Shown piece after piece: positions 1,782 to 5,920 of a stretch of DNA of 32,000 nucleotides. Source of the DNA: Modestobacter sp. VKM Ac-2985 (lineage in GTDB: Bacteria > Actinomycetota > Actinomycetes > Mycobacteriales > Geodermatophilaceae); NCBI RefSeq assembly GCF_026967925.1, contig NZ_JAPVBI010000003.1, forward strand, positions 1,038,826 through 1,070,825, given 5' to 3'. Below the pieces are notes generated by a model. It made no database searches. It was not told the origin of the DNA and saw only the letters and a list, made by a program, of their open reading frames with translations. Positions within the stretch are counted from its first letter, which is position 1. Every line of letters begins with the position of its first letter. The position numbers and the translations under genes were made by a program.

Positions 1782-2885
1782 GTGTCAGACGCCTCATCCC
1801 CCACCGAGGGCCTGGCCGACGGGCTCGGTTCCCGCCGCCTGCACCCGCTGGAAGCCGGTGACCCGCCGCAGATCGGGCCCTACCGGCTGCTGTGCCGGCT
1901 GCCGCGCGGCGGTCAGGGAGCCGACGTCTTCGTCGGGCGGGACGACGCCGCCGACCCGCTGGTGGTCGTGAAGAGCCTGCCGGGCGGCGCCGGGGAGCTG
2001 GTCCGGCGGCGGTTCGCCCGCGAGGTGGAGAACGCCGCCCGCATCCGCAGCCCCCGCGTGGCGCAGATCGTCGACCAGGACCTCACCGCGGCCAACCCGT
2101 ACTACGCGCAGGAGTACGTCGCGGGGACGCCGCTGGACGAGTTCCTCGCCTCCCGGGAGGGCGGGCTCAACGCGGAGGAGCTGCGCCGGATCGCCATCGG
2201 GCTGCTGCGGGCGCTGCGGGACGCGCACGCGGCCGGGGTGGTGCACCGCGACGTGAAGCCGGCCAACATCATCATCACCGACCGGGACGTCGTCCTCGTC
2301 GACTTCGGCATCAGCCGCTACCTCGGCGCCGAGCGGCCCGCCGGCACGGTCACCACCGCCCTGGCCGGTCTCGGGTCGAAGCTGTTCGCCAGCCCGGAAC
2401 AGCTGCAGGGGCTGCCGCTGACCCAGGCCAGCGACGTCTACAGCTGGGGCATGGTGATCGCCTACGCGGCCGGGGCCCGGCACCCGGTCGACCCGGACGA
2501 CGAACTGGCACCCGCCGACTACTGGCTGGAGCTGCAGGCCGGCCGGCTGGACCTCTCCCCCGTGCCACCGAACCTGCTCGACCCGGTGTCGCACGCGCTG
2601 CGGGTAACGCCGGAGCGGCGGCCGACGATCGCCGAGCTGGCCCGCGACGTCGAGCAACAGACCCGCTGGCTGGAGCAGCCCTCGGAGATCCCCTCCCCCC
2701 GGGCGAGGCTGCAGGACCTGCGGTCGGTCGTCGCCGTCCGTGAGGCGGTCCGGTACCACCTCTCCCGGCTGGAGCGGGCGATCGCCGACACCCCCACCGG
2801 CTACGCCGCGGCGATCGTCTGCGCCGTCGTGCTGGGGCTGGTGGCCGCCGTGGTCCTCGGCTTCGTCACCTACATCATCTTCTGA
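1782..2885 (+). CDS. Hanks-type Ser/Thr protein kinase with a single C-terminal transmembrane tail anchor
   Basis: C-terminal third of track ORF 198..2885. The upstream part of that ORF is antisense to the GGDEF-EAL gene. GTG at 1782 is in frame and preceded by GGGAGG (1765-1770). Kinase motifs:
- VVVKSL (catalytic Lys)
- HRDVKPAN (2244-2267)
- DFG (2301-2309)
- ASPEQ (APE equivalent)

The last ~27 residues (YAAAIVCAVVLGLVAAVVLGFVTYIIF) are hydrophobic, with no extracytoplasmic domain. Confidence 0.85.
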   Translation: MSDASSPTEGLADGLGSRRLHPLEAGDPPQIGPYRLLCRLPRGGQGADVFVGRDDAADPLVVVKSLPGGAGELVRRRFAREVENAARIRSPRVAQIVDQDLTAANPYYAQEYVAGTPLDEFLASREGGLNAEELRRIAIGLLRALRDAHAAGVVHRDVKPANIIITDRDVVLVDFGISRYLGAERPAGTVTTALAGLGSKLFASPEQLQGLPLTQASDVYSWGMVIAYAAGARHPVDPDDELAPADYWLELQAGRLDLSPVPPNLLDPVSHALRVTPERRPTIAELARDVEQQTRWLEQPSEIPSPRARLQDLRSVVAVREAVRYHLSRLERAIADTPTGYAAAIVCAVVLGLVAAVVLGFVTYIIF

Positions 2886-2902
2886 TCCCCCGAGGAGGCA
2901 CG

Positions 2903-3041: not shown

Positions 3042-4229
3042 ATGCCGAAGAAGGACCTGGTCTGCCCCCGGTGCCTGGAGTCGTTCCCGGTGCCGCTGCT
3101 GCGCAGCCCGATCGGCGGGCCGCAGCCGGTGCCGGTCCCGCGGCGCACCGCGTGGCAGCGCTTCAGCGAGGGGCGGTGGGGTGGCCAGCCGGAGCCCGGC
3201 CCGTCGTCCCAGGCAAGAGCGGCGGCCTCCGACGCGGTCGACGCCGTGCCGGTCTGCCCGAACGGCCACCGGCTGCCCCCGGACTACGCCACGCGGGCGA
3301 CCGTCGTCGTCGGCGTGGTGGGCCTGACCGGCGCCTCGAAGAGCACCTTCCTGACGGTGCTGGTCGACGCGCTGCACGCCGGGGCGCTCGCCCCGCTGGG
3401 CATCTCGGTCGAGCTGGACGAGAACAGCGCCGACCGGTTCGAGCGGCACTACCACCAGCCGCTGCTGGTCGACCACCGGCAGCTGCCGGCGACCCAGCCA
3501 CTGCTGGCGCAGGGCGAGTCACCGGAGCCGCTGACGCTGGTGCTGCGGCGGACGATGCAGGGCGGGCCGGAGCGGGCGATGAACGTCGTCCTGTTCGACG
3601 CCTCCGGGGAGCAGCTGTACCGGAAGGAGGACCTGGGCCGGTTCGGCAAGTTCCTGTACCGGGCCGACGCCGTGCTCGTCGTCCTCTCGCCGGGGATGTT
3701 CCCCGGGCTGCAGTCGGTGGCCGACCCCGGCGAGGCAGCGCTGGGCATGGCCCGGCCGACGCAGATGCTGGTCAACCTGGCTGACCTGCTGCGCTCGGCG
3801 CGCGGACTGCGCCGGGACGGCTTCCTGCAGGGGATCTCCGCCGGGGTGGTGCTGAGCAAGGCCGACAAGCTGATCACCCGGCCGGACTTCCCGGCCGACA
3901 CGCTGCGCAACCCGGAGATCAGCCTCGCCGCGCTGCCCACCCTGTTCGAGGACGTGCGCCACAACAGCGCCCGCCTGGTCGACTTCCTGGAGGCCAACGG
4001 CGGCAGCAACCTGCTGACCACGCTGCTGACCCGACTGCCGGACCCGACCGTGCACGCCGTGTCGGCGACCGGGTCGGACGCGAGCGACGGCGCCTACCCC
4101 TCGATCGCCCCTGTTGGATGCCTGGAACCGCTGCTGGTGCTGCTCGCGCGGCACGGCTTCCTGCCCAGCGAGGGGCTGGACGCGGACGACGCCGACTTCC
4201 GCGCCGCCGGTGATCGGCTGGGCCGATGA
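3042..4229 (+). CDS. Zn-ribbon-fused P-loop GTPase (TRAFAC-class motifs)
   Basis: Track ORF, 395 aa.
- N-terminal CPRC (3063-3074) plus CPNGH (3255-3269), a Zn-ribbon-like pair
- Walker A/G1: GLTGASKS (3321-3344)
- G3: DASG (3597-3608)
- G4-like: SKAD (3855-3866)

The stop overlaps the next start (ATGA at 4226-4229). Confidence 0.8.
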   Translation: MPKKDLVCPRCLESFPVPLLRSPIGGPQPVPVPRRTAWQRFSEGRWGGQPEPGPSSQARAAASDAVDAVPVCPNGHRLPPDYATRATVVVGVVGLTGASKSTFLTVLVDALHAGALAPLGISVELDENSADRFERHYHQPLLVDHRQLPATQPLLAQGESPEPLTLVLRRTMQGGPERAMNVVLFDASGEQLYRKEDLGRFGKFLYRADAVLVVLSPGMFPGLQSVADPGEAALGMARPTQMLVNLADLLRSARGLRRDGFLQGISAGVVLSKADKLITRPDFPADTLRNPEISLAALPTLFEDVRHNSARLVDFLEANGGSNLLTTLLTRLPDPTVHAVSATGSDASDGAYPSIAPVGCLEPLLVLLARHGFLPSEGLDADDADFRAAGDRLGR

Positions 4230-5920
4230 CCACCTGCCCGCAGCTGGTCTACACCTCGGCGAGCCGGACGCTGGAGGGACCGGGCTTCGGCGTCGTCCAG
4301 CTGTCGCCGGACTGGCCCGCGGAGGTCGGCGACAGCCGCGCGACGCTCGGCCCGCTGATCGCACTCGGCGACGGGGAGTCCTTCGGCCTGCGGCACACCG
4401 CCGGCGGGCGGATCGCCTACCGCAAGGTCCAGGCTGGGACGGACGCGTTCGGCCGGCCGGGCAACCACCTGGTGCACCTGCTCTGGGACGGCGCCGGCCG
4501 GGTCACCCCCCGGGACGTGCTGGCGTTCCGCAGCGGCGGCGGGTTCCTCGACGGGCTCCCCGCCGAGGCCGAACCCTCGCGCGGAGCACCGGCGGTGGAG
4601 GTGCCGTCGGCCCGCCGGTCGCTGCCGGCCCTGACCGCGGACGACGTCGACGCCCTCCTGCCGCACGTCGCGGCGGTGCTCGCGGCGGTGGCCGCCGGTG
4701 CGGGGGTGGTCGGGCTGCCGGCCCGGACGGCGTCGGGTCGCGACGTCGCCGAGCTGGTCTTCGGCGTGCTGCCACGGGCGCTGGCCTCGGCCGTCGCGCT
4801 GCACGTCGGGACGGCGTCCGCCCTGGGCGACGCGGCTGCGGTGCGGGTGCACGTGGGGCCGGAGGTGCCCAACGACCTCCTGTCCGAGGGCCCCGTGCCG
4901 GACGGGCAGGACACCGCACGGGCGCGCGCGCTGCTGGAGGCGGCGGCGAAGAAGGAGCTGTGCTCGGACAACGTGCGCAAGCTGGAGACCCTCGACCGGT
5001 GGCTGTTCGCCGACACCTGGACGGGGCTGGACCCGGCGTCGCTCACCCCGGTCCAGCTGGTCGCGGTGCTGGAGTCGGAGAAGGCCGGGTGGTGGCTGTC
5101 CTCCCCGGACGCCGTGGACGTCGCCTGCGCGGTGGCTGCGTCGTCCCCGGAGGTGGATGCGGCGCTGCGGACGGCGCTGTCCCAGCACCCCGATGCCTGG
5201 GACCGGCTGCGCGACCGGGAGCTCGACGCCGCGCTGACCGCCGTCTTCGGTGGCGCCGGGCAGGCGGAGGTGCCGATCGGCTTTACCGGGCTGACCCGGG
5301 CGGAGCTGTGCGAGGCGTTCACCGCGGAGCTGGCGCGGGGCCGCCGGCTCGCCGAGGTCGGCGGGGCCGCGGCCACGCTGGTCGAGGAGTCGGTGGCCCT
5401 CCCCCAGCCGGTGGCGTTGCTGCAGCTGACCGACGATCTCGCCGGGCTGGCCCGGCTGGCCACGAGCCGGCCGGTGGTGCGGGAGGCACTGGTGCGGGAG
5501 TGGGCGGGAGTGGACGAGTGGCCGGCGAGTTCTGCCTCACTGCTCGGGCATCTGCTGCTGGAGGACCCCGACTGGTTCCTGACGCTGGGCGGCGCCGCGC
5601 CGGTGTCGGTGGTGCGGGCGGCGCTGCCCTGGGCGGCGGAGCGGCTGGCGGCGTCGATGGTGGAACGACTGGCGCTCACCGTCGCGGCCAGTGAGCTGGC
5701 GGGACAGGGCTGGGCGCTGCGGGACGTGTTGTTCCGGTCCGGGCTGCCCGACGAGGAGGTCGCCGCGATCGTGGCCCGCAACTTCCTGGTGCTGGCCGGG
5801 GACGACGGCTGGCCGGGCGAGGTCGCCCGGCTCGCCGCTGGTGCGCTCGGCGCGGGTCCCGGCGGGGAATCGGCTGAGGGCCGCCGGAAGACCGGCATGT
5901 GGCCGCGGCGCCGCCGGTAG
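4226..5920 (+). CDS. Large Ala/Leu-rich helical protein with a GAP1-N2-like N-terminus (GTPase-associated protein 1-like)
   Basis: Track ORF, 564 aa; third codon positions are nearly all G/C in this frame. The N-terminus reads MTTCPQLVYTSASRTLEGPGFGVVQLSPDWP...GRPGNHLVHLLW. From memory it resembles the QLxYTS...GxGFxV...GRPGN signature of GAP1 N-terminal domains described for GTPase-centred conflict systems. This is not verified by a search. Confidence 0.7.
   Translation: MTTCPQLVYTSASRTLEGPGFGVVQLSPDWPAEVGDSRATLGPLIALGDGESFGLRHTAGGRIAYRKVQAGTDAFGRPGNHLVHLLWDGAGRVTPRDVLAFRSGGGFLDGLPAEAEPSRGAPAVEVPSARRSLPALTADDVDALLPHVAAVLAAVAAGAGVVGLPARTASGRDVAELVFGVLPRALASAVALHVGTASALGDAAAVRVHVGPEVPNDLLSEGPVPDGQDTARARALLEAAAKKELCSDNVRKLETLDRWLFADTWTGLDPASLTPVQLVAVLESEKAGWWLSSPDAVDVACAVAASSPEVDAALRTALSQHPDAWDRLRDRELDAALTAVFGGAGQAEVPIGFTGLTRAELCEAFTAELARGRRLAEVGGAAATLVEESVALPQPVALLQLTDDLAGLARLATSRPVVREALVREWAGVDEWPASSASLLGHLLLEDPDWFLTLGGAAPVSVVRAALPWAAERLAASMVERLALTVAASELAGQGWALRDVLFRSGLPDEEVAAIVARNFLVLAGDDGWPGEVARLAAGALGAGPGGESAEGRRKTGMWPRRRR

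Follow-up and report, generated by a model that had tools for sequence, protein, structure and literature searches.

The closest described relatives of the system treated here are the DO-GTPase-GAP1 systems, which were defined as a gene pair by computational prediction (Kaur, Burroughs, Iyer & Aravind 2020, eLife 9:e52696; PMC7159879). According to that paper, two GTPases are present in only 38% of the systems, 60% of the DO-GTPases carry one or two N-terminal Zn ribbons, with two ribbons said to be usual for GAP1-N2 systems, and components bearing transmembrane (TM) segments occur in 67% of the systems. The Walker B glutamate is singled out as a DO-GTPase feature, and an FNIII 'sensor' protein is considered typical of GAP1-N2 systems. 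The third GAP1-N2 theme, which accounts for about 10% of the neighbourhoods and is found in actinobacteria only, comprises an active kinase that is fused to TM helices or, alternatively, to a Zn ribbon together with a beta-rich domain; in most cases, a PP2C phosphatase and a standalone vWA protein are associated with this kinase. For the GAP1/DO-GTPase family as a whole, the 'conflict' role is a prediction. In this study, we analyzed a stretch of 32,000 nucleotides (nt) from the actinobacterial host Modestobacter sp. VKM Ac-2985, in the following called the window, which contains on its plus strand a cassette of about 4.1 kb with the order kinase gene, micro-ORF (a small open reading frame), GTPase gene and GAP1 gene.

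This cassette is very probably a member of the kinase theme of DO-GTPase2/GAP1-N2 systems, with its four genes working as one unit. A preceding sequence-only reading of the window had not recognized the combination of a tail-anchored kinase and a micro membrane protein with a single Zn-ribbon GTPase as a described architecture. This was overstated, as the kinase theme, single GTPases and Zn ribbons are already contained in PMC7159879. The new details, a conserved micro-protein and a minimal core of four genes, are modest and provide a good experimental entry point.

Organization and conservation of the four-gene unit

The four genes are tightly packed (Table 1). Between the stop codon of the kinase gene (TGA, 2883-2885) and the GTG start codon of the micro-ORF (2903) there is a gap of 17 nt with a GAGGAGG Shine-Dalgarno (SD) motif, the stop codon of the micro-ORF (TGA, 3038-3040) is separated by 1 nt from the ATG of the GTPase gene (3042), and the 4 nt ATGA (4226-4229) are shared by the GTPase and GAP1 genes. 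All these junctions, which the sequence-only reading had listed, were found in the sequence as described. A coding bias was present in all four proposed frames, with a GC content of 0.93-0.96 at third (GC3) and 0.46-0.56 at second codon positions (GC2). The hairpin closing the unit, likewise noticed before, is strong (-43.2 kcal/mol; z = -5.0), and 0 of 200 shuffled sequences folded equally well. As a U-tract is lacking, the terminator scan missed this hairpin, which probably represents a terminator of the I-shaped kind without such a tract. The four genes form a single translationally coupled, operon-like unit.

For the analysis of conservation, 26 related loci (L001-L026) were used, which represent species-level genomes of Modestobacter, Blastococcus and Geodermatophilus from a pattern-limited genome scan. 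Kinase, micro-ORF, GTPase and GAP1 were present in identical order in all 26 Geodermatophilaceae loci and, since all four genes keep their order in 26/26 cases, the arrangement is far beyond chance. Identities to the window were 64-95% for the kinase, whose orthologues are encoded 5' of the GTPase gene throughout, 59-89% for the GTPase and 47-90% for GAP1. The same quartet order was found in eight more distant metagenomic contexts (sampled as L027, L030, L031, L032, L033, L034/L035 and L036-L038) with GTPase identities down to about 28%, and wherever the gene 5' of the peptide was complete, it encoded a C-terminally anchored kinase. Thereby, the co-occurrence of the four genes outside this genome, which the sequence-only reading had put forward for checking, was established. 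The identities of kinase, GTPase and GAP1 drop in parallel, from 47/46/33% (L027) to 35/28/28% (L036). Judged from these comparisons, the four genes are co-inherited and co-diverge as a block in the Geodermatophilaceae and beyond, and within this family the cassette looks vertically inherited, without visible mobility.

Two distant variants differ in gene content. L039 (about 30% GTPase identity) has a GTPase-GAP1 pair without kinase and without micro-ORF, while L036-L038 have extra downstream genes for a vWA protein, a PP2C and one more kinase. In L036 (positions 1944-12655; L036-L038 are JGI metagenomes), genes for a kinase, a 46-aa TM peptide, a DO-GTPase2 and a 601-aa GAP1 are followed by those for a 347-aa unknown protein on the minus strand, a vWA protein of 231 aa, a PP2C of 643 aa, a protein of 304 aa whose match to APH is faint, and the additional kinase. 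Two cassettes, L010 and L026, were located on two contigs of one metagenome-assembled genome (Geodermatophilus sp. SMAG_U10765), and share 92.9% identity in the GTPase, which is due either to a bin with more than one strain or to a duplication in the recent past.

Table 1. Features of the cassette and of its surroundings in the window.
Feature	Positions	Strand	Basis or remark
Hanks-type Ser/Thr kinase, 367 aa	1782-2885	+	ORF and Pfam Pkinase
Shine-Dalgarno motif GAGGAGG of the micro-ORF	2892-2898	+	sequence reading
Micro-ORF, 45 aa, GTG start	2903-3040	+	ORF, GC3, conservation
DO-GTPase2-family TRAFAC GTPase, 395 aa	3042-4229	+	Pfam PF19993
GAP1, N2 type, 564 aa	4226-5920	+	Pfam PF20013
Strong hairpin, end of unit	5987-6029	+	folding energy
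Divergent membrane GGDEF-EAL gene	3-1625	-	upstream of cassette
RHH antitoxin (67 aa) and Fic/Doc toxin (125 aa), 4-nt overlap	6104-6681	+	directly 3' of cassette hairpin
SNase-domain protein, 397 aa, long Ala/Glu/Arg-rich repeat tail (AAEEAARKAAEE...)	6952-8145	-	
452-aa protein, good coding statistics	8223-9581	+	no Pfam, PADLOC or PHROGs match
Truncated DUF4011/SF1 helicase (full ~1,930-2,030 aa), PADLOC PDC-S37/Hhe-like	9915-11984	+	break near 11880
Small pair resembling phage-type toxin plus HTH protein	13862-14538	+	phrog_17063 2e-10; phrog_18428 6e-15
IS3-family element: HTH_Tnp_1 ORF and rve ORF	16317-17500	+	4-nt overlap 16604-16607
BREX cluster, complete-looking	17602-31456	-	GC 0.60-0.72, below cassette
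BrxHI-type helicase	17602-19713	-	
BrxD	19710-21050	-	
PglZ	21047-23866	-	
BrxC/PglY	23848-27555	-	
PglX methyltransferase with DUF7008	27629-31456	-	

Gene products and genomic neighbourhood

The kinase matched Pfam Pkinase with E = 2e-28 and has the catalytic motifs K64, HRD (155-157), DFG (174-176) and SPE (204-206). Its one hydrophobic segment (333-367) contains a single C-terminal TM helix at about 340-367, resulting in a layout of cytoplasmic catalytic domain, linker helix and C-terminal tail anchor without ectodomain. This agrees with the intact, tail-anchored kinase of the sequence-only reading, and the C-terminal TM helix is retained in the distant kinase relatives. The combination by which the kinase theme is recognized, i.e. 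a kinase with intact catalytic motifs and a TM helix in an actinobacterial host, is present in the cassette.

The micro-protein has a basic N-terminal helix (net charge +7, residues 1-27) followed by a C-terminal TM helix (about 25-45), as had been noticed before, and is annotated by NCBI as hypothetical protein (WP_269185193.1). The GC3 of the micro-ORF is 0.93 in its own frame, which differs from the frames of both neighbours. Its 45-codon core, with the pattern MSG[LM]Y[EQ]RA..QQ...ARR.R[FY]..R and the subsequent TM helix, is kept in 26/26 loci, and in most orthologous loci the same or a near-identical SD motif is located 5' of it. By these sequence features, the micro-ORF qualifies as a genuine conserved gene. 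Furthermore, a peptide of 42-50 aa with basic N-terminus and TM segment is encoded directly 5' of the GTPase gene in every distant kinase-type locus, including L032, where such a peptide appears once the wrong frame taken by the automated call is corrected. With a hidden Markov model of the micro-peptide, 18.2 bits (L033) and 15.7 bits (L027) were obtained, compared to 9.2 and 6.3 bits, respectively, for the best of 200 shuffles. Homology of the micro-peptide is supported statistically in L033 and L027 only, and in the other distant loci the resemblance appears positional and architectural. From this distribution, the conserved micro-protein emerges as a presumably obligatory fourth component of the kinase theme. 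Matches of the micro-protein in Pfam and NCBIfam were all below threshold, none of them to a toxin or holin family, and there was no PADLOC or PHROGs match.

The GTPase scored 39.4 bits with the Pfam family DO-GTPase2 (PF19993; gathering cut-off 27), which is also carried by most of the GTPase homologues, and NCBI names it 'TRAFAC clade GTPase domain-containing protein'. No match to a housekeeping GTPase (Era, Der, YihA etc.) was obtained in NCBIfam or Pfam, and such an identity was ruled out; the profile check that the sequence-only reading had proposed thus turned out in its favour. The P-loop GLTGASKS (94-101), the Walker B motif DASGE (186-190), SKAD (272-275), SAT (341-343) and the Zn ligands C8, C11, C72 and H76 are invariant in 48 GTPase homologues, and so are K100, D186, E190, K273 and D275 within these motifs, which bears out the G motifs and the N-terminal Zn ribbon seen earlier. 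With one four-ligand set, the GTPase has at least one Zn ribbon, which is interrupted by an insert of ~60 residues with poor model quality, and ligands for a second ribbon are absent. With the AlphaFold2 model (pLDDT 76.9), Foldseek gave matches of about 1e-5 to EF-Tu, YcjX, atlastin and G-alpha, which reflect the generic TRAFAC fold only, and the GTPase profile had no solved-structure relative by sequence. Neither the GTPase nor GAP1 has a TM segment.

When 1.84 billion representative proteins were searched with a profile, 1,658 related clusters were obtained, most of them with 370-400 aa spanning Zn ribbon and GTPase domain. Kinase-GTPase fusions (Rosetta-stone evidence) were not found in ten long relatives, which showed TIR and PPC fusions instead. 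P0227 (577 aa), obtained in this search, has an N-terminal TIR domain in fusion with the DO-GTPase2 domain, and further relatives (P0199, P0246, P0251, P0255, P0258) have a PPC domain or uncharacterised N-terminal extensions of about 870 aa.

For the 564-aa protein, the sequence-only reading had proposed a resemblance to GAP1, and it scored 30.9 bits with Pfam GAP1-N2 (PF20013; cut-off 24), a domain matched by 55 of 56 GAP1 homologues; accordingly, its NCBI name is 'GAP1-N2 domain-containing protein'. It consists of a beta-rich N domain (1-130), an alpha/beta middle domain (138-245) and an all-helical C domain (250-540), followed by a disordered polybasic tail ending with RRRR, and the AlphaFold2 model (pLDDT 88.5) has this three-domain N/M/C layout, encoded directly 3' of the GTPase gene. 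A direct Pfam match to GAP1-M (PF20014) was found in 0 of 56 orthologues. In hhalign, the GAP1 family profile aligned with proteins carrying GAP1-N2 and GAP1-M over 512 columns (99.9% probability; E = 1e-35), and the distant GAP1 proteins of L031, L033, L039 and L034 passed for GAP1-M with 34.1, 31.9, 27.3 and 25.6 bits, respectively. By sequence, the GAP1 profile had no solved-structure relative. A fold search against PDB and BFVD gave nothing at E ≤ 1e-3, with weak ARM/HEAT-like matches of the helical C domain only; similarities to TagF (E = 0.29) and C9orf72-SMCR8 (E = 0.33) were too weak and were set aside.

The cassette adjoins a variable region with the RHH-Doc pair, the SNase-domain protein, the IS3 element and BREX. 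The defence- and mobile-rich context of the sequence-only reading (RHH-Doc, SNase, helicase fragment, IS3, BREX) could be annotated accordingly, while for its label of mobile or prophage relics there was loose support from the toxin/HTH-like pair (phrog_17063, phrog_18428) and from IS3. The RHH antitoxin is also present in L002 and L003, with the Doc gene unmatched in both. The SNase-domain protein corresponds to PADLOC candidate C3a212 (SNc+LTD; 2e-30) and is 91% conserved in L002. Of the truncated helicase, residues 1-654 are left, with 94.7% identity to the full-length orthologue of L002. The low-GC island with IS3 and BREX appears to be inserted in the helicase gene, as the break coincides with a GC drop from ~0.74 to ~0.68, and the overlap of the two IS3 ORFs suggests a frameshift.

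The flanks vary from genus to genus. Upstream of the cassette, Modestobacter loci have the GGDEF-EAL gene and Geodermatophilus loci the DUF4011 SF1 helicase of ~2,000 aa, with or without VapBC. This helicase, which PADLOC scores as PDC-S37/Hhe-like, is full-length and directly 5' of the cassette in all Geodermatophilus loci with enough upstream sequence, and as a recurrent neighbour it was found in 19 of 27 loci. In 11 of 18 Geodermatophilus loci (L007-L025), a GAF/PHY-SpoIIE phosphatase, STAS, an RsbW-like kinase, a PknB-like kinase and RtcB are encoded about 0.4-8 kb 3' of GAP1. This set resembles a partner-switching module and probably has no relation to the cassette, although a functional link to the cassette kinase is conceivable. 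The SpoIIE-type phosphatase was considered as the missing PP2C and set aside, being encoded on the opposite strand with STAS and RsbW-like genes and absent from Modestobacter.

Proposed function and alternative explanations

Our preferred reading is a reduced four-gene, kinase-associated GAP1-N2/DO-GTPase2 system that would act as a membrane-proximal, GTPase-gated kinase switch, which we consider moderately likely. The switch would probably serve in conflict or envelope stress. A role in conflict rather than in housekeeping membrane or developmental signalling is about an even call, and confidence in any single mechanistic step is low. Based on the sequences, kinase and micro-protein are predicted to be tail-anchored with their functional parts in the cytoplasm, and GTPase and GAP1 to be soluble. 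The Zn-ribbon GTPase and GAP1 would form a cytoplasmic switch complex, with GAP1 as scaffold and sensor and with a threshold set by the GTP/GDP state. Upon a trigger, which may be a phage component or a perturbation of the membrane or envelope, the complex would dock at the membrane via the basic helix of the micro-protein and the polybasic tail of GAP1. With docking at the inner membrane face, the tail-anchored kinase would become more or less active, and it might then phosphorylate cellular targets or the micro-protein. The output would be an arrest of growth, abortive infection or a response of the envelope.

TM helices are fused to the GTPase or GAP1 themselves in other GAP1-N2 systems, and here the micro-protein plausibly supplies the membrane anchor for the GTPase-GAP1 pair in trans. 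It would be an anchor or adaptor, a pore-forming effector being less likely, and it suggests a route by which TM-less GTPase-GAP1 pairs get to the membrane. A farther-reaching version takes the quartet as the true minimal core of kinase-type GAP1-N2 systems, the micro-protein as a membrane-acting element (anchor or released pore-former), and a self-contained, GTP-thresholded, phosphorylation-driven form of abortive infection in actinobacteria as the output; taken as a whole, this version is a tentative proposal that is unlikely to be correct. Hints for a conflict role are the TIR-DO-GTPase2 fusion among the relatives (P0227), the persistent PDC-S37/Hhe-like helicase neighbour, and the toxin-antitoxin pairs, nuclease and BREX nearby in the window.

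Several observations weigh against a conflict role or a complete kinase-theme system. The cassette has a host-typical GC content of 74-76%, and its position is constant within genera. The ratio of nonsynonymous to synonymous substitution rates (dN/dS) is 0.2-0.5, and this range was dropped as an arms-race signature, being uninformative with GC3 saturated and the micro-ORF too short for an estimate. No homologues were found in phages, plasmids or viral contigs, no toxic effector domain is recognizable in the cassette, and GTPase, GAP1 and micro-protein had no family match in PADLOC v2. The partners typical of GAP1-N2 systems are missing as well: FNIII had no match among the window proteins, in the ±10 kb flanks of the 26 loci or among the scanned L036 neighbours, and neither vWA nor a cassette-attributable PP2C was found in the window or in the ±10 kb flanks of L001-L026. 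A comparative PSP study cites DO-GTPases as predicted membrane-stress factors, and the searchable literature yielded no experimental work on DO-GTPase/GAP1 systems, as the sequence-only reading had assumed. Judged by GC content, position and dN/dS, the cassette resembles an ancient module passed on vertically rather than a defence gene that is being shuffled. Geodermatophilaceae have complex life cycles with aggregates and zoospores, and the quartet could be a housekeeping or developmental module in this family, in which a GTPase-regulated tail-anchored kinase steers envelope, membrane-stress or morphogenesis processes. The single position per genus, the host-like GC content and purifying selection would fit this explanation, as would the lack of mobile-element, phage or plasmid copies and of an effector domain, the citation in the PSP study, and the ties of GAP1-N2 themes to tubulin, HSP70 and cytoskeleton-like assembly (PMC7159879). 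It is nevertheless somewhat unlikely, given that TIR is fused to GTPase relatives, that the wider family is defined by variable, effector-bearing, mobile neighbourhoods (PMC7159879), that the cassette repeatedly adjoins defence genes and a variable island, and that its occurrence across the family was sampled in 26 species-level genomes by a pattern-limited scan.

The micro-protein might also itself be the effector, i.e. a small pore-forming or depolarising peptide of type-I toxin- or holin-like kind, which the switch of kinase, GTPase and GAP1 would restrain or set free in a self-contained abortive infection system. At all distances sampled, a basic single-TM peptide of 42-50 aa is encoded between kinase and GTPase, the micro-ORF is translationally coupled on both sides, SLATT pore-forming effectors are fused in other GAP1 systems (PMC7159879), and the reduced cassette offers no other candidate effector. 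However, the peptide matched no toxin or holin family and nothing in PADLOC or PHROGs, its single TM helix leaves almost no extracytoplasmic residues, and an anchor or adaptor role accounts equally well for the same data, so that we regard an effector role as improbable. Practically negligible is a fortuitous juxtaposition, in which kinase and micro-ORF would merely lie next to an unrelated GTPase-GAP1 gene pair, or in which the high GC content would mimic a coding micro-ORF. Spurious ORFs are indeed numerous in high-GC genomes and the distant pair of L039 has neither kinase nor micro-ORF, but order and spacing are kept in 26/26 loci and eight further contexts while the flanks vary, by which this explanation is effectively refuted. 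The artefact was ruled out by the coding-type, frame-specific GC3 and by the conserved SD motif, length and sequence. If the preferred switch has an immune role, a GTPase-gated kinase switch would be added to bacterial defence logic; if it has a housekeeping role instead, actinobacteria would have a new signalling module of G-protein/kinase type.

Comparison with known systems

The kinase domain of the cassette scores strongly with those of PD-T4-6 (1.8e-45), MADS Mad6, BREX PglW and Mokosh MkoA in PADLOC and NCBIfam, and by analogy to such kinase-based anti-phage defences a phosphorylation-based abortive response would be a plausible output. However, these matches span the generic kinase domain alone and are far under the NCBIfam family cut-offs, and the respective systems have no DO-GTPase, GAP1 or micro-protein. 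Membership of the cassette in one of these defences is unsupported. Streptomyces conservons (CvnA-D) include a histidine kinase, a Roadblock protein and an MglA-like GTPase, and in ROCO proteins a Roc-COR unit is fused to a kinase. The logic of conservons and eukaryotic Ras/ROCO-type switches, a small GTPase with accessories coupled to a membrane-associated kinase within one actinobacterial operon or one pathway, is similar to that of the cassette, but the families are unrelated and the comparison is an analogy only.

The kinase theme of the GAP1-N2 systems remains the closest counterpart. Shared with its description are the order of a Zn-ribbon DO-GTPase2 and a GAP1-N2 protein (PF19993, PF20013) in an actinobacterial host, the linked kinase with intact catalytic motifs and a TM helix, TM-bearing parts pointing to a membrane-proximal role, and the vWA and PP2C partners known from the publication, which L036-L038 carry as distant relatives of the cassette. 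Apart from the missing FNIII, vWA and PP2C, the cassette differs from it by one recognizable four-ligand Zn ribbon in the GTPase instead of the two said to be usual, by a presumed GAP1-M region too diverged for a direct Pfam match (PF20014), by stable inheritance without visible mobility, and by the conserved tail-anchored micro-protein of 45 aa, which is unnamed in the text of the paper and could easily be overlooked by domain-centred surveys. The kinase theme hardly gets more compact than this cassette, and as it does without FNIII, vWA and PP2C and has intact motifs in both enzymes, it is a practical first construct for functional tests, with the fuller form of L036-L038 being useful as comparison. 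Since the published third theme includes TM-fused active kinases and is found in actinobacteria only, we regard the cassette as a reduced form of this described theme.

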